A stretch of 64,000 bases of DNA, from positions 85-64,084 of the forward strand of contig JBEKVQ010000003.1 of NCBI GenBank assembly GCA_049997815.1, given 5' to 3'. This stretch comes from Minisyncoccia bacterium (lineage in GTDB: Bacteria > Patescibacteriota > Minisyncoccia > UBA6257 > GWB1-50-10). Shown here piece by piece: positions 17,009 to 24,975 of the stretch. The notes beneath the pieces were generated by a model. It was not told the origin of the DNA. It searched no databases and worked only from the letters and a program-made list of their open reading frames with translations. Position numbers and translations under genes: made by a program. The stretch's first letter is position 1; each line of letters starts with the position of its first letter.

Positions 17009-18271
17009 TTACAAAACGAAAATCAGGCATGCCACGGCGGCCGCAAGCGTGAAGACGAAGGTAAGCCAGCCGAAAACGTTCGAGATGCCCGAATTCGTCC
17101 TACCCCGCATTATCTTCTTGTTGTTGGCCATGCGGATGATGAGATATACGAGAGGGGGCGTGATGAAAGTGTACAAAACCGCCGCATATATCAGGAGCTG
17201 AATGGGGTCAATATTCAAAAAATTCATCGCCGCACCCAGAAAGGTGGCAAAAATTATGACGAGATAAAAACCCTTGGCCTCGCGGAATGTCTTGTTTATC
17301 CCCTCTTTCCAATTGAAAACCTCGGCCAAAACATAACCCACGCTTCCGGCAAGGACCGGCACGGCCAGAAGCCCCGTACCAATGATTCCCAGTCCGAAGA
17401 TGAGGAAAGCAAAATTGCCCAAAAGCGGTTTCAGAACCAGGGAGGCTTCGTCAAAGTTCGAAGCCGCCGCGATACCGTAAATTCCGGCCACCTGGCCGGC
17501 AGCCGCAATGATAAACCAGGTAATGAACTGCGAGAAGAACATTCCGAGAAGCGTATCTTTTCTCAAGTGCTTTAACTCGTTCTTCGTCACCAGAAATTTT
17601 TTCAGGCGCTTTTCCTTTTTCTCCTCGTCGCGCTCTTCCACCTCCTCATCGGCCTGCCAGAAAAAAAGATAGGGCGATATGGTCGTGCCCAAAAACGCCG
17701 CAAAAAGCAGAACGTAATCCTTGGTGAAACTGATGGAAGGAATGATCGTTGACTTCAGCGCGCTGATCCAATCCACGTGAAGATACAGCGCCGTCGCCAC
17801 GTAAAACAGGAGCGAGAGCGTGAGCCATTTCAGGACGCCCGCGAACTTCGGATAGGAAAGAAAAATGGTGAAGAAGAGGATAAAAACCGAGATAGCCGGG
17901 AGCCAAAAGAACCTCGAAACGAGCGTAAACTTTTCGGCAATGACGCCGATAGCCGAGAGGTCGGCACCGATATTCACGGTAATGACGACGACGGAGACGA
18001 ACCCCACGGCATAAAGGATCCACTTGGCGTAGTGCTCTTTTATAACCTTGATAAGCCCCTTGTCGGTCACATAGCCTATCCGCCCGGACATCTCCTGAAT
18101 GGCGTACATGAGTGGCAAGCAGAAAAGCGTGAGCCAAAGCGTACGGAAACCGAATGAAAAGCCGGACTGGAGATAGGTCAGAATCCCCGAGGGATCGTCG
18201 TCGGAGGCGCCCGTGATAATTCCGGGCCCGGCGCTTTTACCAAGCGCCTTTATCTTTTCCCAAAGTACCAT
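17009..18271 (-). CDS. Nramp-family divalent metal transporter (MntH-like)
   Basis: 420-aa polytopic membrane protein with the GPGIITGASDDDPSG...LQSG Nramp signature near the N-terminus. Confidence 0.65.
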   Translation of the reverse strand: MVLWEKIKALGKSAGPGIITGASDDDPSGILTYLQSGFSFGFRTLWLTLFCLPLMYAIQEMSGRIGYVTDKGLIKVIKEHYAKWILYAVGFVSVVVITVNIGADLSAIGVIAEKFTLVSRFFWLPAISVFILFFTIFLSYPKFAGVLKWLTLSLLFYVATALYLHVDWISALKSTIIPSISFTKDYVLLFAAFLGTTISPYLFFWQADEEVEERDEEKKEKRLKKFLVTKNELKHLRKDTLLGMFFSQFITWFIIAAAGQVAGIYGIAAASNFDEASLVLKPLLGNFAFLIFGLGIIGTGLLAVPVLAGSVGYVLAEVFNWKEGINKTFREAKGFYLVIIFATFLGAAMNFLNIDPIQLLIYAAVLYTFITPPLVYLIIRMANNKKIMRGRTNSGISNVFGWLTFVFTLAAAVACLIFVL

Positions 18272-18329
18272 TCATTTAATTATGCCACAAACAAAAACGC
18301 CCCCTAAGGGGCGTTTTCTTAAACAAACC

Positions 18330-18548
18330 CTAATGAGCAACGGAGCAACACTTGCAATTGCCGCCCATGAGCTTAGTCAATCCGCCGATGATAACGAGGA
18401 TCGGCCAAATAATGCCTACCACGTCCGCCGTGAAGACATTTAGGGCGCCCAGCAAGAAAACGAGGCCGAAGACCGTAACGAGAACGGGCATCACCTTGTG
18501 ATGAGAGCAGGTGCACTTTCCGCCACCCATATTCATATTTCCTTCCAT
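18330..18548 (-). CDS. small cysteine-rich membrane protein
   Basis: 72 aa: GGGKCTCSHHK, one TM helix, and a C-terminal GGNCKCC; flanked by terminator hairpins. Confidence 0.3.
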   Translation of the reverse strand: MEGNMNMGGGKCTCSHHKVMPVLVTVFGLVFLLGALNVFTADVVGIIWPILVIIGGLTKLMGGNCKCCSVAH

Positions 18549-18603
18549 AAATTTGTAAAATCTAAAACCGACCTTTACCCTTAACTTAATTATAGCAAAA
18601 GCA

Positions 18604-19221
18604 TCAAAATCCCAGTTTTTCCCTCACGATTATCATAGTCGTCCTGCTGGGGACGTCTTTGTTTACGATGAGAATTTTATTGATGCTACTTTCCCGGCCG
18701 TAGGTCTTCTTCGCGCGCTCGTTTTCGAGCGGAAAGACGTATTCCTGAATGCGATCCATCCCCTCATTGAGGTCCTTCACGAACTTCTGGGCCCCAACCA
18801 CCCAAATCACGTTCCCCGCTCCATAGGCATAGGCCGGCAATTGGCTGCCAGTTGCCGAAACAGAGATAATTCTCCCGTCTTCCGTAACGGCATTAGCGCT
18901 CCCGACGGCCCAATCCGGCGCGGCTCCCATCATTTTCATTTTCTTTCCGTCGGTCTTGGCATCCATAGACATGAATTTTTTGCGGACGGAATCGTATCGG
19001 CCGGATTCCGTTATCTCTTTCACGGCGCCGATGGCTTCAAGCGTCATCGAGGTCATGTTCATCACTTCCGCCCCCGGAGGAATGAGTTCCAATAATTTCT
19101 TTTCCGCTTCAGCGGCATCCCGGACGATAAAAGTTTTTATTCCGTTATTTTCGAGCGCGAGAGCGACTTTATTCACAACCTCATCGCTCGGCAATACGCC
19201 GTATTTTTGATTTGGTTCCAT
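18604..19221 (-). CDS. LUD-domain (LutC/YkgG-like) protein
   Basis: 205 aa; overall resemblance to LUD/DUF162 proteins. Low-specificity call. Confidence 0.4.
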   Translation of the reverse strand: MEPNQKYGVLPSDEVVNKVALALENNGIKTFIVRDAAEAEKKLLELIPPGAEVMNMTSMTLEAIGAVKEITESGRYDSVRKKFMSMDAKTDGKKMKMMGAAPDWAVGSANAVTEDGRIISVSATGSQLPAYAYGAGNVIWVVGAQKFVKDLNEGMDRIQEYVFPLENERAKKTYGRESSINKILIVNKDVPSRTTMIIVREKLGF

Positions 19222-19229
19222 GTCTATAA

Positions 19230-20024
19230 CTATAGCGAAAAATCCAGTATTAAGGGAAGGTGGTCGGAGACCTCGACTTCCGGCAATTGAAACGAGCCGA
19301 CCTCAATATCCGGCGAGACGAACATATAATCCGAGATGCTATCCGGCACGGCTTCCCCTTTGTATCCTTCATAGTGGATCCGGCTACGCGTGGTTCTCAC
19401 ATTAAAATCCTTAATGAGATTTTTCATGGTGTGGCCCAGAACAGCGATGCTCTTTGTATCCGGATAAAGATTGAAATCGCCACAAAGAATTTTATGGCCG
19501 TCAACGCCATTAAGAAATTCTAAAATCTTTTTCGACTGCTCAAGGCGGGCCGCATTATCGTTCTTGGGCCAAGTTGCTATTCCATGGAAATCGCAGACGG
19601 TGAGGGATGCGCCTCCGACATCGAACGTCTTATATTGCAAGAGGCCAATTTTATGCGTCTCATCGCTTTTTATCTTGTAAAGGGAGCCATAAGCGAAAAA
19701 ACTTCCTTCTTCCTTAAGGCGAAGATTCTTTCTGTGGAAAATCGCGGTACCCAAAACGACTCCCGAAGCAGCCCCCCCGGTGAGCTTATCGAGAGAGACC
19801 ATCGGAGCAAAAGAACCGCTGAAATCCGGCAGTAATTCTTCCAACTCTCTCAGTAAAAAAAACCGAACACCAATTCCATCGTTATATACCTCTTCGGCCT
19901 TAAGCGCCTCTTGAAAGCAAAAGATGTCGGTCTCTGGTGACATATCTTCTATGAATTTTTTCAGAGCTTCAAACCTTTTTCCACACCAAATGTTCAGACA
20001 AATTAACTTCATTTGTGCCCCCAC
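19230..20024 (-). CDS. endonuclease/exonuclease/phosphatase (EEP) family protein
   Basis: 264 aa: LICLNIWCG N-terminus, FCFQEA, a C-terminal EVSDHLPLILDF catalytic motif. Confidence 0.75.
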   Translation of the reverse strand: MGAQMKLICLNIWCGKRFEALKKFIEDMSPETDIFCFQEALKAEEVYNDGIGVRFFLLRELEELLPDFSGSFAPMVSLDKLTGGAASGVVLGTAIFHRKNLRLKEEGSFFAYGSLYKIKSDETHKIGLLQYKTFDVGGASLTVCDFHGIATWPKNDNAARLEQSKKILEFLNGVDGHKILCGDFNLYPDTKSIAVLGHTMKNLIKDFNVRTTRSRIHYEGYKGEAVPDSISDYMFVSPDIEVGSFQLPEVEVSDHLPLILDFSL

Positions 20025-20097
20025 TAGGGATCGAACCTAGGACCCACTCCTTAAAAGGGAGGTGCTCTACCAACTGAGCTATGGGGGCAATTTATTT
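20025..20097 (-). tRNA. tRNA-Lys (anticodon UUU)
   Basis: Reverse complement: GCCCCCATAGCTCAGTTGGTAGAGCACCTCCCTTTTAAGGAGTGGGTCCTAGGTTCGATCCCTAGTGGGGGCA. Cloverleaf with anticodon loop CTTTTAA; CCA not encoded. Confidence 0.8.
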
Positions 20098-20098
20098 T

Positions 20099-20464
20099 TT
20101 AAGATTTGCGATCTTTCTGGATGATCTTCCAGTGATATATGAACAGCGGCGTTCCGATGATTATCATTGCGAGGGCATTTGAGGCGGTGCGCTCCCGGTC
20201 GCTCTCCCTTTGTTTTTCCTGGGCCGCCGCTTGGTCCGCGTTGTACTTCTCCTGGTCCACCGGGGTCATAACACTGCCTTTAACGTCGGCAGGCGCGACC
20301 AGAACGGGATAGGAGGGATACATTATCATTTGGTCGGCGTTCTTAAACACGAAGGCCTTCAACCCCAAGTCAACTAAGTTCACGAGTCCGATGACCACGA
20401 TCACCAACCCCACGAGCGAGAACAGATACAGATAGATTGTACGGATTAATTCCTTGCGTTCCAT
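20099..20464 (-). CDS. membrane protein, hypothetical
   Basis: 121 aa with N- and C-terminal TM helices. Confidence 0.35.
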   Translation of the reverse strand: MERKELIRTIYLYLFSLVGLVIVVIGLVNLVDLGLKAFVFKNADQMIMYPSYPVLVAPADVKGSVMTPVDQEKYNADQAAAQEKQRESDRERTASNALAMIIIGTPLFIYHWKIIQKDRKS

Positions 20465-20539
20465 GCATTATTAATATACACATAGACGCTTTAATTTTCA
20501 ACCTGATCCACCTTAACACAAGGTGTTATAATTAGATTA

Positions 20540-20899
20540 ATGAATAAGATCTGTAAGAAGCACGGGCTTACAAAACACTTTAAAAGAAACGATGGGTCTT
20601 GGCGTTGTAACAGGTGTGCTTCCCTATGGGTAGTGGATAGTCGGATACATAAGAAGGAAAAATTAGTAAAGATGTTTGGCGGTAAGTGCAGTAGGTGTGG
20701 ATATAATCGCTATATTGGTGCATTGGATTTTCACCATATTAACCCGGCAAATAAGTCTTTCTCTTTAAGCGTAAAGGGTCTCTGTTATGCCTGGGACACT
20801 ATACTTGCTGAGGCTAAGAAATGCATATTGTTGTGTAAAAACTGTCATATGGAGGTTGAAAAAGAATCGGCTATGATACATAATAAACGGGCACATTAA
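20540..20899 (+). CDS. HNH endonuclease (free-standing, possibly intron/homing-associated)
   Basis: 119 aa: CxxC ... CSRCGYN ... DFHHINPANKS ... CKNCH, i.e. an HNH zinc-finger nuclease pattern. Ends 10 nt before the intron-containing tRNA. Confidence 0.55.
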   Translation: MNKICKKHGLTKHFKRNDGSWRCNRCASLWVVDSRIHKKEKLVKMFGGKCSRCGYNRYIGALDFHHINPANKSFSLSVKGLCYAWDTILAEAKKCILLCKNCHMEVEKESAMIHNKRAH

Positions 20900-20908
20900 G
20901 AGATTGAT

Positions 20909-21181
20909 TCCTCGGTAGCTCAGTGGTAGAGCGGCTCCCTGTCAGAAGGCAGCTTTCCGCCGAGAGGCGGTTTGAAAAATTTCGGGATAACGGTGAAGGC
21001 TAAATCTTAAAAAGATATGCGAACACCGTGGGAACCCGCCAAGATTCTTAAATTTAGGCGGGGCACCGTAGAGACTAGATACCGAAACACCTTTAATATG
21101 GTGATGATATAGTCCACCCCTTCAGGAAACTTTAGGATACGTGTAAGGAGATGGTCGTAGGTTCGAATCCTACCCGAGGAG
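20909..21181 (+). tRNA. tRNA-Asn (GUU) interrupted by a ~200-nt group I intron in the anticodon loop
   Basis: 5' exon TCCTCGGTAGCTCAGTGGTAGAGCGGCTCCCTGT; 3' exon TAAGGAGATGGTCGTAGGTTCGAATCCTACCCGAGGAG. U1:A72 and the G73 discriminator are typical of tRNA-Asn. The intron carries the P7-region motif GTAGAGACTAGA and follows a U at the 5' splice site, with a G before the 3' exon. Confidence 0.7.
20943..21143 (+). ncRNA. group I intron (self-splicing ribozyme candidate) within tRNA-Asn
   Basis: Inserted after anticodon position 35. Contains CACCGTAGAGACTAGATACCG, resembling the conserved core of tRNA-embedded (Azoarcus-type) group I introns; the last intron nucleotide is G. Confidence 0.6.
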
Positions 21182-21203
21182 CATAGGGGGTAAAATTGCC
21201 CAA

Positions 21204-21638
21204 ATGCGCAAATTTACCACACTTGCGATTCTAACATCGTCCCAAACGGAAATGTTTAGAAATACATTTTTTAGAAAAAGAAATAGACTAGGGATTGGAA
21301 AAGAATCATACTCTACACCAGAAGCGCGTGAATTGGGGAGGTTACTAAAAAATTATGGCTGGAAGGTAGAGCTAGAAAAATGGGATGGGCATAAACATAT
21401 TGATATAGCAATTACAGAAGCGAAAGTTAATATCGAGGTTGACGGCAAACAGCATAATCTTAGTCCAAAACAAGCACTTGCAGATTTAGAGCGAACTTAC
21501 TACTCCTTCAAGAAGGGTTATGTAACTTTAAGAATTCCTAATGTTTTGGTTCGGGACGCCGCAACAATTGAAGATACAGCGCGGTTTATTGATAAATTCT
21601 TAAGAGAAAGCGATTGGCAGTTAGACCATTCAGGCTGA
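21204..21638 (+). CDS. DUF559-like (Vsr/PD-(D/E)xK-fold) endonuclease-domain protein
   Basis: 144 aa: TPEARELGRLLKNYGW...HIDIAI...KVNIEVDGKQHN...D..R...L...G..VLRI matches the DUF559 pattern. Confidence 0.5.
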   Translation: MRKFTTLAILTSSQTEMFRNTFFRKRNRLGIGKESYSTPEARELGRLLKNYGWKVELEKWDGHKHIDIAITEAKVNIEVDGKQHNLSPKQALADLERTYYSFKKGYVTLRIPNVLVRDAATIEDTARFIDKFLRESDWQLDHSG

Positions 21639-21644
21639 TGCTTA

Positions 21645-21986
21645 TTGGTGGTGTCAAACAGTTATGATTTGTATGTTAAAATGACATTGATGGGCAACGA
21701 CGTGCAAACAAAAGTTGTTGATGAAACTCCAAAGGTTTCGAGGGGGCAGCGATGGTTTGCTGGATATATTATCGCAGGCATCATTTGGTATTTGGGGCAG
21801 AGTTTCAATAGAACTTCATATGATGGAATTATTATTCTGGCGATCGCTATTCTTTGTGGTATATTTTACCATCGGCTTAAAGAAAAGATAAAAATCAAGC
21901 AGGAAGGTGTGAGAGTTGTGGTCACGTTTTTAGTTCTTGAAGTGATTGCTGGTGCATTAGTAGGATTTTTCACGGCGTTATTTTAA
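21645..21986 (+). CDS. membrane protein, hypothetical
   Basis: 113 aa, two or three TM helices; in the low-GC region. Confidence 0.3.
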   Translation: MVVSNSYDLYVKMTLMGNDVQTKVVDETPKVSRGQRWFAGYIIAGIIWYLGQSFNRTSYDGIIILAIAILCGIFYHRLKEKIKIKQEGVRVVVTFLVLEVIAGALVGFFTALF

Positions 21987-22160
21987 TTCATACCTGGTTC
22001 TAGACCTACCCACTCCGCAGACAAGGCATAACTATCGCACCAACCTCGTAAGCCGGGATTCTAGTGTAACCGAGGAATCCTATAAAAAGTACGGGTCTTA
22101 AGATGACGACGGCCTTCTAGACCTACTTGACATAATTGGCATATAGACTACCATAGAGTC

Positions 22161-22544
22161 ATGGCCAAAACAAAAGCGAAAATGACTCTTCCCAGCGGTA
22201 CCCAGGTTGTGATTGAAGGCACCCCTTCTGAGGTTGCTGCGATTGTACATCAGCTTGGCTTCAGATCTGAAAAGATTTCATCAAGTGAACGAGTGAATGT
22301 GCCCACTGGTCGGAAAACTGCAAAGGAAAAGAAAATAAGAACTTCCCCGACAGATTTAATTCTTTCTCTTGCGGACGGAGGATTTTTTAAGTCCCCCAAA
22401 GACCTTGCTTCCATAAAGGAGGGACTTGCAGAAATAGGTCATATCTATCCGATCCAAACCCTATCTTCCATAGTGTTCAAAATGGTTCGACGGCGATATT
22501 TACGCCGAGTTAAAGAGGACGGACGCTGGGTTTATATAAGATAA
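22161..22544 (+). CDS. hypothetical protein (low-GC island)
   Basis: 127-aa ORF in the AT-rich island; no recognisable motif. Confidence 0.35.
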   Translation: MAKTKAKMTLPSGTQVVIEGTPSEVAAIVHQLGFRSEKISSSERVNVPTGRKTAKEKKIRTSPTDLILSLADGGFFKSPKDLASIKEGLAEIGHIYPIQTLSSIVFKMVRRRYLRRVKEDGRWVYIR

Positions 22545-22549
22545 CTATT

Positions 22550-22765
22550 ATGAAAAAGAAGAAACAAAAAGCGAGCGTTGCAGAAAAAGTTATAAAAGTA
22601 CTCGACAAACAACCAAAGACTGCTCAGGAAATTAAAAAAGAATTAAAAGACAAGTTTGGGCATAACGAAAAACTTGACAATATCAGGGTTAATTTACTCT
22701 ATTTACTAAGGCGAGAGAAAATCAAGCGTAGAAAAGAAGAGAAGATATACAAATATTATATTTAG
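22550..22765 (+). CDS. small lysine-rich protein, possible DNA-binding
   Basis: 71 aa, very basic, 6 nt after the previous gene. Confidence 0.3.
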   Translation: MKKKKQKASVAEKVIKVLDKQPKTAQEIKKELKDKFGHNEKLDNIRVNLLYLLRREKIKRRKEEKIYKYYI

Positions 22766-22771
22766 CTTCTC

Positions 22772-23257
22772 ATGGATCAACAAAAAATAAATAAAAAGGT
22801 TATTACGCAACTTATCGATCATGAAAGGCGGATTCGTGCACTCGAAACTGACGCACGGTCCGCAGAGGAAAAAGGAGTTGAAAAGCAGACCAGAACCGAT
22901 GATTCGGACAATTTAATTTTGGCCATAGTCAATAAAATCGGTGAGTGCGATGAGAGCGAGGAAATACAGAACAAAGTTCTCGATCAAAGGAGTACAGAGG
23001 GGAAAATTTTGCTCTGCTTCTATATTTCGCATAAATATTTTAAAAACACTTGGTTGACAACGGGCGATATAGAAAAAATTACATCTGGTTTAGGGACTAA
23101 AATAGCTATAGGTAATGTTTCAAACAAAATAAAGGGAGAACTGAGACAATACCTTGAAAGTGGGGCAGTGAGAAAGCAAGGACAACCAACCCCATATCGC
23201 CTTAATCGTAAAGGGGTGAAAAGATTTGAGGAAATGCTCCGCGCTGAAAAAGATTAA
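22772..23257 (+). CDS. hypothetical protein (low-GC island)
   Basis: 161 aa; tightly spaced with its neighbours on the same strand. Confidence 0.35.
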   Translation: MDQQKINKKVITQLIDHERRIRALETDARSAEEKGVEKQTRTDDSDNLILAIVNKIGECDESEEIQNKVLDQRSTEGKILLCFYISHKYFKNTWLTTGDIEKITSGLGTKIAIGNVSNKIKGELRQYLESGAVRKQGQPTPYRLNRKGVKRFEEMLRAEKD

Positions 23258-23265
23258 CCCAAACC

Positions 23266-24015
23266 ATGCTGGAAACCATTAAACAGGAACTAAAAAAGAA
23301 GGTAAACGATGATGATCTCATCGATAATTTATTTTCTAGTTTTCAGAAAATTTCCGAAGAGTTTGTAGCGCAGAAACCAGTGGATCTCTTGCAGAACACC
23401 GGTTTATTCGTTGAGTCTGCTCTAAGGGTGGCGGAACATTTTGTCCTGGGCGTACATACTCCCCTCGGGAAGAAATTCAATATTGATACCTGCATTCAAA
23501 AATTAGAGGGGGCTTCTGGCTCCGACGGTTTAAAGATCCATACGGCGCGCTTAAGCCGAGCGATTTATGACTTTCGATCTCGGAAAAAGTCAGTGCATCT
23601 TAAAGCAATCGATCCACAAGCTATTGATGCAAGCTTGGTTTTTAATATCAGTAACTGGATTCTTATAGAAATTTTGAAAGAAAGTAATGTTGAAAATCCA
23701 GAGAATGCAATCAAAATCCTATTTACGAGAAAAATCCCCCTGGTTCAGAGTGTCGGGGGCATACTGCGCACAACAAATCCTGAACTATCTGGACCACAAA
23801 GAATTCTGCTTCTTCTTTATTCTGCCCCGGAGGGTTTAACCGAGGGTCAGCTATATGAAAGTACACGACAGAAAATTAGGGACAGCAATCATCTTAGGAC
23901 AAACCTTAGGAATATGGATGCCGCCGACCTTGTTCACAAGCTTCCAGATGGCCGATGGACTCTTTTCGGCCAAGGTTTCTCCGAAGCAGAAATGCTTATT
24001 CAAAAATTCAGCTAA
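23266..24015 (+). CDS. hypothetical protein (low-GC island)
   Basis: 249 aa; last gene of a four-gene same-strand cluster. Confidence 0.35.
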   Translation: MLETIKQELKKKVNDDDLIDNLFSSFQKISEEFVAQKPVDLLQNTGLFVESALRVAEHFVLGVHTPLGKKFNIDTCIQKLEGASGSDGLKIHTARLSRAIYDFRSRKKSVHLKAIDPQAIDASLVFNISNWILIEILKESNVENPENAIKILFTRKIPLVQSVGGILRTTNPELSGPQRILLLLYSAPEGLTEGQLYESTRQKIRDSNHLRTNLRNMDAADLVHKLPDGRWTLFGQGFSEAEMLIQKFS

Positions 24016-24570
24016 AGAGGCTGGAGTCGATTGGGTGTATGAGACCGAGACGCCCAAATAGGCCACCACAAGAAGTTTTAAGAAAGCTCTGTAACGCCTC
24101 ACATTAAAAAGTCCGAATTCTGGTACGCCACACTAGAGCAACAGATCAACCCTATCATCACCCCCGTTCTTTCTCTTCGCATCCCAGAGTGCCTGTCTCA
24201 CAAATAACCAGGCCAGCTGTTCTGCCGCCTTCTCAATCCGTTCTTCTTTAGTGAGTGATGGATACCATGGTATCCCCTCTTCCCGGAGCTTCTTCATTCT
24301 CCTTTCCCGTTCCTTTTTCCCTTGTGGCATGTTCGGTAACGTACCACTGTAGCGTACCGTAGGCCCATTCTACAAGTAAGGAGGGTAGGAATGCCGGAAA
24401 GAACAACTTAAGCCGCGAGCGATACCGGTTTCTCCCCAGAGAGTTCTTTAATCATCCTCACTTTTTCTCGCACGCTGGCCATATATGCTCTATCAAGCAA
24501 TAATATGGAAAGCGCTGGACTGGGGAGCAACGGTTTTTAGTTAGCATTACTTGGGGTATAATCTGACGAC

Positions 24571-24975
24571 ATGGATTACGAATTACTTGCCAACGTGGTG
24601 ATGGTCCTTCATGCTTTATTGATCGTTTCCATATTTTTGGGAATTCTTTTCAGCATTAAGATTCGTTGGTTTAGGCCCGTTGAATCCTTCGCGTTACTGA
24701 CGGCTATCGTCATCTGGTCCATATTCGGGGGATGCCCGCTAACCTTCGTCGAAAATTACTTGCGACTGCACACTTCTCATCCCATCCCTTTATCAACCAC
24801 CGGTTTTATACCCTACTACCTCTATAATTGGTTCGGTCTTCAGTTGTCCAACTCAGCATTTGTGCTTGGAACATACTTAATCGCATTACTATTCTTTTTT
24901 ATCGACTTGGAATGGCTCTCCTCTTTTTTGAAGCGGATATTTCTGAAAAAAACTGGCAGACATACTAGACCCTAA
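24571..24975 (+). CDS. membrane protein, hypothetical
   Basis: 134 aa with about four TM helices. Confidence 0.35.
   Translation: MDYELLANVVMVLHALLIVSIFLGILFSIKIRWFRPVESFALLTAIVIWSIFGGCPLTFVENYLRLHTSHPIPLSTTGFIPYYLYNWFGLQLSNSAFVLGTYLIALLFFFIDLEWLSSFLKRIFLKKTGRHTRP

Follow-up and report, generated by a model that had tools for sequence, protein, structure and literature searches.

A group I intron in tRNA-Asn and an adjoining free-standing HNH endonuclease gene in a bacterium of the Candidate Phyla Radiation

Why is a tRNA-Asn gene interrupted by a group I intron and enclosed by two nuclease genes, and do these elements travel together? The question is raised by a stretch of 64,000 nucleotides, called the window in the following, from a Minisyncoccia bacterium of the Candidate Phyla Radiation (CPR) (assembly GCA_049997815.1, contig JBEKVQ010000003.1, positions 85 to 64,084). 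A first-pass annotation, made from the sequence alone, had described here a split tRNA-Asn(GUU) gene, an HNH endonuclease gene upstream and a DUF559 endonuclease gene downstream. All of these features are present, within 1-2 nt of where they had been placed. Comparison with related loci makes it fairly probable that the locus combines a functional intron-bearing tRNA-Asn gene with a free-standing HNH homing-endonuclease cassette, the two cooperating by collaborative, or trans, homing, a mechanism which we infer from the sequences compared.

The interrupted tRNA-Asn gene

The 5' exon (20909-20942; all features given with window coordinates are on the + strand) comprises tRNA positions 1-35 and ends with C32 U33 G34 U35 (...CCCTGT). 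An intron of 201 nt (20943-21143, ending ...ACGTG), devoid of open reading frames (ORFs), separates it from the 3' exon (21144-21181), which starts TAAGGAG and extends from U36 to the discriminator base G73, the CCA end not being encoded. Neither ARAGORN, used with default settings, nor the Rfam tRNA model detects the gene. It is found by ARAGORN when introns are allowed, and the joined exons are called as a tRNA-Asn(gtt) of 73 nt with a canonical cloverleaf, 88-93% identical to the uninterrupted tRNA-Asn(GTT) genes of relatives.

Two collections of related loci were assembled. For the genome set, GTDB genomes were searched with the HNH protein alone, which yielded 80 loci; for the metagenome set, contigs were scanned for the exon-P1 junction pattern, independently of the HNH protein, and 120 loci with 121 pattern matches were obtained, 99 of the matches containing a complete interrupted gene with an intron of 177-342 nt. 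Interrupted tRNAs were located by using ARAGORN with the -i option, which allows introns, together with anchored regular expressions. The homologous interrupted genes gathered in this way were 157, 58 from genomes and 99 from metagenomes.

The Rfam model RF00028 (Intron_gpI) matches positions 20929-21136 with 50.8 bits, at a gathering score of 50 bits (E-value 6e-10 for the whole window, 3.7e-12 in a local search). The threshold is reached by related introns at 16/18 and 14/20 further loci, with scores up to 101.6 bits. A structure model, drawn from the window sequence, comprises P1 (20939-20943/20948-20952, with U20942.G20949 at the splice site), P2 (20957-61/20966-70), P3 (20980-85/21082-87), P4 (20990-95/21024-29), P5 (20999-21000/21019-20), P5a (21004-07/21013-16), P6 (21030-31/21066-67), P6a (21035-40/21057-62), P7 (21073-77/21110-14), P8 (21088-91/21100-03), P9 (21119-25/21130-36) and the omega-G at 21143. 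All helices pair, except for two mismatches in P9. The motif GTAGAGACTAGA is located at 21068-21079; in its J6/7-P7 sequence (GUAGAGACUAGA) and in the motifs of P4-P6 the intron presumably resembles the Azoarcus-type (IC3) or Anabaena core.

The model was evaluated on a structure-blind MAFFT alignment of 43 homologous ORF-less introns. In this alignment 82.5% of the cells are paired, compared with 35-43% when the partners are slid by 1-3 columns, changes on both sides occur in 36 of 52 pairs, and the observed pairing values were reached by none of 500 shuffles. P2 is paired in 99% of the cells and all five of its pairs covary; the corresponding values are 97.6% for P4, 100% for P6, 100% for P7, whose sequence is invariant, and 82.7% for P8. 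Covariation is seen in P1, P2, P4, P6 and P8. The value for P3 drops to 61.5% because a subfamily insertion shifts the register of the MAFFT alignment. The fold from P1 to P9, including the P7 pairing on which the first-pass proposal of a group I core depended, is thus borne out. Judged from this conservation, the interruption is a genuine group I intron with a conserved core, the P3/P7 pseudoknot included, and self-splicing is predicted.

The position of the splice sites was derived from P1, which has the form CUGU(N)/(N)GCAG. Its splice-site pair is U.G in 42/42 distinct sequences and the pair beside it covaries (CG 27, GC 8, AU 3); therefore the splice site was placed after U35, which gives the anticodon GU|U and hence tRNA-Asn, split after position 35 as originally annotated. 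Every 5' exon of the genome and metagenome sets ends CTGT, and every 3' exon begins TAA preceded by G, this G being the last nucleotide of all 59 genome-set introns. GT/GTG is repeated at both junctions, and a placement 2 nt upstream, often picked by ARAGORN with introns allowed, defines a tRNA-Thr(UGU); this was rejected because of the pairing and covariation of P1, the discriminator G and the identity to uninterrupted tRNA-Asn genes.

The exons are intact throughout the family. All 7/7 acceptor pairs are kept in 149 of the 157 interrupted genes, through 36 different stems, which indicates that the exons are under selection for function; 55 different anticodon stems are found among them, and the discriminator is G in 152. 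Within the 64-kb window neither a second tRNA-Asn, whose presence the first-pass annotation would have taken as a sign of a pseudogene, nor a second group I intron was found. Thus this appears to be the tRNA-Asn(GUU) gene on which the bacterium, a CPR member of the Paceibacteria type, relies. A metagenome locus with two interrupted copies was also observed (L124, 7438-7476(+) and 10610-10649(-)), about 3 kb apart and neither with an HNH gene.

Genes of this kind are systematically under-annotated. The locus is identical to part of a contig of the JGI metagenome 3300038451 (Ga0427963_0000070; L201, corresponding to window positions 18252-24638), and in the gene calls of that source record both the HNH ORF and the interrupted tRNA are absent.

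The HNH family and its association with the intron

The HNH gene (20540-20899), an ORF of 119 codons encoding 119 aa, lies 5' of the tRNA, from which it is separated by 9 nt. In the genome set, which was collected by similarity to its product, an interrupted tRNA-Asn lies within about 125 nt of the HNH gene, or contains it, at 58/80 loci. Three arrangements are seen. At 35/80 loci the interrupted tRNA-Asn is divergent, about 60-125 nt 5' of the HNH start; at 8/80 it follows the HNH gene directly and in the same orientation, which is the arrangement of the window; at 15/80, from Berkel-, Doudna-, Komeilibacteria and others, a shorter HNH homologue is encoded inside the intron. An uninterrupted tRNA-Asn occupies the divergent-upstream or downstream position at 7/80 loci, so that 58/65 CPR HNH genes with an identifiable tRNA-Asn accompany the intron. 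Counting the window, 43 genome loci and 15 metagenome loci, a free-standing HNH gene adjoins an ORF-less intron in each case. Of the eight loci arranged like the window, L001 and L003 also share its tRNA-Lys/DUF5671 synteny.

The intronic form of the protein, 104-120 aa long, has no N-terminal zinc ribbon. Between the 5' splice site and the start of its ORF lie 10-49 nt, in one case 119 nt; the ORF fills the P1 loop and ends in or past the internal guide sequence and P2, the stop codon often lying in P2 itself; the codons for ...AGITQLP... hold the guide ACGCAGC. This interlocking of the reading frame with guide and P2 ties the HNH lineage to the insertion site of the intron.

About ten of the remaining 15 loci of the genome set carry distant homologues from other phyla, some beside tRNA-Gly/Cys or tRNA-Pro; at the other five the contig ends near the gene or no tRNA-Asn is in reach (L019). 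The distant homologues include those from Acidobacteriota (Pyrinomonadaceae) metagenome-assembled genomes, 40-54% identical over the core, which are located between tRNA genes and without introns: L067 and L070 between tRNA-Gly and tRNA-Cys, L073, L076, L078 and L079 beside tRNA-Pro. Phage homologues are 35-51% identical, and on 64/80 phage contigs they lie no more than 400 nt from tRNA genes; the four best include the zinc ribbon and flank intron-less tRNA-Asn genes in tRNA arrays. The association of the family with tRNA genes thus extends beyond CPR bacteria and phages. A single HNH-family member was seen on the 3' side of a tRNA, a protein of 214 aa, extended at its C-terminus and containing a distant HNH core of 41% identity, encoded about 75 nt 3' of an interrupted tRNA-Asn (L089:880-1350(-)). 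By these sequence comparisons the family is a tRNA-gene-associated HNH lineage, with a CPR branch bound to the tRNA-Asn intron site.

In the protein, an N-terminal zinc ribbon (C5, H8, C23, C26) is followed by a putative beta-beta-alpha-metal core of the form CxxC...DFHH...CxNCH, in which C50, C53, D63, H65, H66, C99, N101, C102 and H103 are invariant among 22 diverse sequences; the catalytic His, the metal ligands Asn and His and the zinc ligands of the flanking CxxC motifs are thereby conserved. HNH families of PHROG match the ORF with E-values from 7.5e-24 to 3e-12; nothing significant was found for it in NCBIfam, and a PDB sequence search returned a marginal match to the L31 zinc ribbon only. 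The AlphaFold2 model of the protein has a pLDDT of 92.3.

Just 5' of the HNH ATG lies a palindrome with an extended -10 box (20513-20532, TTAACAC-AAG-GTGTTATAAT). With 7 nt between the end of the box and the ATG, a leaderless mRNA is probable. The same promoter/palindrome, TTAACAC-N3-5-GTGTTATAAT (or TATACT; AACAC core), precedes 39/47 long-form HNH genes, in any orientation to the tRNA, and in 32 of these 39 it ends 6-7 nt before the ATG. It looks like a portable, putative promoter/operator belonging to the HNH cassette and giving a leaderless mRNA. At Woesebacteria-type loci a short-form HNH gene stands free upstream and has an ordinary TTGACA promoter. A candidate promoter for the tRNA, found by a consensus scan only (TTGAAA-17-CATAAT, 20856-20884), is located in the 3' end of the HNH ORF and ends 24 nt before tRNA-Asn.

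Proposed collaborative homing and alternative explanations

These data suggest how intron and cassette could work together. In the pre-tRNA, CUGU of the anticodon loop would pair with the intron guide GCAG to form P1, with U.G at the splice site; the 5' splice site would be attacked by exogenous G, docking of the terminal G (21143) would follow, and ligation of the exons would restore a normal tRNA-Asn. The HNH cassette, which descends from the protein family that other CPR lineages encode within the P1 loop, would provide an enzyme able to nick or cut tRNA-Asn genes that have no intron. Recombinational repair from a chromosome with both HNH gene and intron would then co-convert the two elements, and the intron, by splitting the site of the enzyme, would protect the chromosome in which it resides.

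A hint of such protection comes from the alleles that coexist with an HNH gene in intron-less form. Their anticodon-loop sequence is the same as in the spliced exons of the window (for example CTCCCTGTTAAGGAG in L013), and changes in the D arm are found in 4/7 of them, versus 2/59 intron-bearing genes (Fisher p = 0.0007). This enrichment fits a recognition site that would include the D arm and extend as far as the anticodon loop.

Several observations weigh against collaborative homing. Among the 102 metagenome introns with at least 450 nt of upstream sequence, 15 are preceded by an HNH gene, 6 by a GIY-YIG gene and 9 by a conserved family of 228 aa, and 72 (about 70%) by none of these; no convincing degraded remnants of HNH genes were detected upstream of the HNH-less introns. 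Moreover, an allele with the intron can gain or lose the HNH gene, something that collaborative homing in its strict form would not lead one to expect: two loci, L024 with HNH and L104 without it, are 93.7% identical in tRNA and intron, have a conserved upstream block and differ by an HNH cassette of about 300 nt. They form an occupied/empty pair, in which the cassette was gained or lost independently. Three intron-less alleles (L008, L014, L017) stand beside an intact HNH gene and show no obvious change of the target site, and a fourth, L013, has exactly the exon-junction sequence of the window; since the junctions are unaltered in all four, the site must be elsewhere or the enzyme tolerated. 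The assignment of the protein is also affected, as no Pfam model matches the ORF above threshold (AI2M-like_HNH, PF21368, E 0.015; PF01844, E 0.11), and the top PDB matches of the predicted fold in Foldseek, all HNH nucleases (Cap5, Gme HNH, T4 endonuclease VII, Cas9 HNH), are weak (E 0.1-1, TM 0.3-0.4). Finally, homologues are 54-79% identical across Adler-, Kaiser-, Nomura-, Campbell-, Jorgensen-, Wolfebacteria and other Parcubacteria/Paceibacteria groups, a conservation unusual for a selfish gene, which possibly points to a role beneficial to the host. The question posed by the first-pass annotation, whether the nuclease genes occur only with the intron, is therefore answered in the negative for HNH, in view of the seven CPR loci and the phage genes beside intron-less tRNA-Asn and of the many ORF-less introns that have no upstream nuclease.

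The block shared by L024 (-531 to -406 from the tRNA start) and L104 (-236 to -111) was observed in its own right. It is about 125 nt long and contains two perfect stems of 9 bp, GCGTGGGTG/CACCCACGC and TTTGAGAAT/ATTCTCAAA; compared with Rfam it gave no match at E <= 0.01, and it may be an undescribed structured RNA.

Alternatively, the HNH gene may home by itself ('intron-less homing') at the tRNA-Asn gene or its 5' flank, the intron being an old, independent resident with which it does not cooperate. The HNH genes found beside intron-less tRNA-Asn, in CPR genomes as in phage tRNA arrays, agree with this explanation, as do the low share of ORF-less introns with HNH (15/102), the L024/L104 pair, with its nearly identical introns and different cassette content, and the Acidobacteriota homologues at tRNA-Gly/tRNA-Cys and tRNA-Pro. 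It does not account for the 15 loci at which the family is encoded within this very intron, interlocked with guide and P2, for the company of the intron in 58/65 cases, nor for the concentration of D-arm changes in the intron-less alleles that coexist with the enzyme. Independent homing is, on balance, an unlikely explanation.

The conservation of the protein can be read differently, as the outcome of domestication: the HNH gene would be inherited vertically and kept by selection as a splicing helper (maturase), as a regulator binding the palindrome, or as a nuclease for maintenance of the tRNA locus. We know of no established HNH maturase. Homing endonucleases can, on the other hand, take maturase roles (PMC3984707), and a domesticated gene would agree with the 46 invariant columns of the HNH alignment, with the identity across CPR groups, with the conserved promoter/palindrome and with the lack of degraded copies upstream of HNH-less introns. 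It agrees poorly with the patchy distribution among close introns, with the existence of an empty site and with the evident dispensability of HNH for the majority of the introns in the family; likewise with the invariance of the catalytic HNH residues, the existence of phage relatives and the low GC content of the locus (0.39-0.41 over the HNH/intron/DUF559 stretch, mostly 0.37-0.45 up to about 24000, against 0.47-0.52 in the flanks). Domestication was accordingly considered quite improbable, and collaborative homing of intron and HNH cassette is retained as the preferred reading.

The DUF559 gene (21204-21638, an ORF of 144 codons) encodes a Vsr-like protein of the PD-(D/E)xK type, matched by Pfam PF04480 with 24.2 bits at a cut-off of 20.6. 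Its first ATG is 22 nt from the tRNA; the JGI start call is later, at 21252. It could be regarded as a second homing or nicking enzyme, forming one mobility module with HNH gene and intron, on account of its nuclease fold family, of its closeness to the tRNA within the same low-GC stretch, and of the other nucleases that lie 3' of tRNA-Asn elsewhere (GIY-YIG in L003, distant HNH in L089). Its homologues, annotated in their sources as very-short-patch-repair endonuclease or DUF559, are moreover common to CPR bacteria and DPANN archaea with 55-88% identity, which suggests horizontal mobility. None of them, however, was found at other tRNA-Asn/intron loci (0/80 in the genome set, 0/120 in the metagenome set), and at eleven loci where homologues do occur, in about five distinct contexts with restriction-modification, defence, glycosyltransferase or housekeeping neighbours, no tRNA is nearby. 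The variable cargo at this side of tRNA-Asn is explained by the 3' flank being a general insertion hot spot. A large serine recombinase (Resolvase, Recombinase and zinc ribbon domains) is encoded convergently just 3' of tRNA-Asn at 12/91 loci with a downstream ORF, and the GIY-YIG and HNH genes of L003 and L089 indicate that nucleases can land there too. A module including DUF559 is therefore very improbable, and the gene is probably an unrelated passenger, acquired horizontally. Of the mobility module and the collaborative homing that had been suggested for both nucleases, what stands is the tie of HNH to the intron, for which collaborative homing is a reasonable model; DUF559 very probably has no part in it.

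Two further readings, decay of the interrupted tRNA into a pseudogene and a borderline false positive of Rfam, whose match is only 0.8 bits over threshold, can practically be dismissed, given the pairing of the helices (bar the two P9 mismatches) and their strong covariation in 43 homologues, the perfect tRNA-Asn formed by the exons, the compensatory changes in 157 genes and the lack of another tRNA-Asn in the window.

Further observations concern the two flanks. The serine recombinase loci are L005, L048, L058, L064, L074, L097, L138, L147, L162, L166, L170 and L176, to which L293 and L297 may be added; in L133 a recombinase gene follows the intron and the 3' exon was not found. In CPR genomes, integrative elements thus seem to use the 3' end of tRNA-Asn as their site of attachment. 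Small GIY-YIG genes (Pfam PF01541, E 1e-12 to 1e-17), a second nuclease family at the interrupted tRNA-Asn, recur upstream (L068, L110, L122, L131, L136, L139, L143, L148), apparently inside the intron in L115, and downstream in L003 (4906-5238). Genes of the conserved CPR family of about 228 aa immediately precede the interrupted tRNA-Asn in the same orientation (L091, L108, L112, L157, L158, L161, L163, L182, L193; L293, L295-L300), and the protein features an N-terminal helix-turn-helix and the motif FIAGxALYxGDG. When further copies were collected by a protein-only search (3 clusters), an interrupted tRNA was found about 20-45 nt 3' in 7/7 of those with enough downstream sequence, the upstream neighbours varying (rpoD, peptidase, holin-like). 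A LAGLIDADG-like fold is possible for this family, the predicted structure matching I-DmoI in Foldseek with E 0.12 versus 1e-3 for an OmpA-like protein.

In the window, the low-GC stretch (20500-24000) also holds four ORFs on the same strand (22161-22544, 22550-22765, 22772-23257, 23266-24015), which match no Pfam family and have no equivalents in L001 or L003, the two syntenic loci. The stretch is possibly a small island without recognisable integrase. Repeats of the tRNA 3' end resembling att sites, sought downstream with up to 3 mismatches, were not found. An exact direct repeat of 12 nt, TTCTAGACCTAC, occurs at 21998-22009 and 22115-22126, around 105 nt of intergenic DNA; it is probably due to chance, as about 0.5 such pairs are expected in 4.2 kb.

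Known systems and significance of the family

Bacterial genes for tRNA-Leu, fMet, Ile and Arg are known to contain group I introns (PMC3984707, PMC8450103), and their presence in some CPR tRNAs is mentioned in passing by Lui et al. 2021 (PMC8172020). The window intron resembles the known bacterial ones in being a small ORF-less ribozyme of about 200 nt in the anticodon loop, with P1 formed by anticodon-loop nucleotides and the exons held together by the anticodon stem. It differs from them in its host, tRNA-Asn(GUU), in the insertion between positions 35 and 36, in its occurrence in CPR/Patescibacteria and in the association with HNH.

Collaborative homing has been described for F-CphI and the psbA intron of cyanophage S-PM2 and for MobE and the I-TevIII-defective nrdB intron of phage T4 (PMC6083498, PMC2790892, PMC3984707). 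In these systems, as in the window, a free-standing endonuclease gene immediately adjoins a gene interrupted by a group I intron whose ORF is missing or defective, and the logic proposed here is theirs: the nuclease would cut intron-less alleles and the intron would protect its own. The window locus, known from sequence alone, is instead part of a cellular chromosome, and the host of its intron is a tRNA gene rather than a phage protein gene; members of its HNH family are also located within the intron and next to uninterrupted alleles, which brings several stages into view together. Another homing endonuclease linked to a group I intron of a tRNA anticodon loop is I-Ssp6803I of Synechocystis (PMC3984707). 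Its gene is located within the tRNA-fMet intron instead of standing free, and the enzyme belongs to a family other than HNH. The phage relatives of the window HNH in tRNA arrays (64/80) recall SegB of phage T4, a free-standing homing endonuclease in a tRNA cluster which promotes inheritance of the tRNA region (PMC2330249); SegB belongs to the GIY-YIG rather than the HNH enzymes, and its system lacks an intron.

In the searchable literature, whose coverage is incomplete, neither a group I intron in tRNA-Asn nor its association with HNH was found described, so that a prior description is possible. Each element by itself is of a known kind, and the novelty lies in their combination in a cellular tRNA gene, with one nuclease lineage located in the intron, beside it and beside intron-less alleles, and with other families at the same flank.

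Standard tRNA finders miss tRNA genes interrupted by group I introns (PMC8450103, PMC8172020). With tRNA-Asn invisible to them at about 200 related loci, CPR genomes may be scored as lacking this tRNA.

The locus also bears on the relation between nucleases and introns. How homing endonuclease genes entered introns is an old question, and to our knowledge experimental support for the merging of endonuclease and intron comes from only two phage systems. In this family dozens of natural intermediates are available, all located in cellular chromosomes, and the short substrates, a 73-bp tRNA gene, a 119-aa enzyme and a 201-nt ribozyme, make the model directly testable. A small, conserved HNH protein with a conserved target region could also serve as a compact site-specific nickase or nuclease.

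HNH genes are found by intron-less tRNA-Asn in phages and some CPR genomes, by an ORF-less intron in the window, and in the P1 loop elsewhere. It may tentatively be proposed that the CPR tRNA-Asn locus preserves, in these arrangements and in living lineages, every stage of a merger that has long been postulated, that of a free-standing endonuclease gene and an ORF-less intron into a mobile intron. If this is true, an essential single tRNA gene, whose 5' flank has independently been occupied by GIY-YIG genes and by the 228-aa family, would be a recurrent arena for partnerships between nucleases and introns in cellular genomes, and not only in phages.

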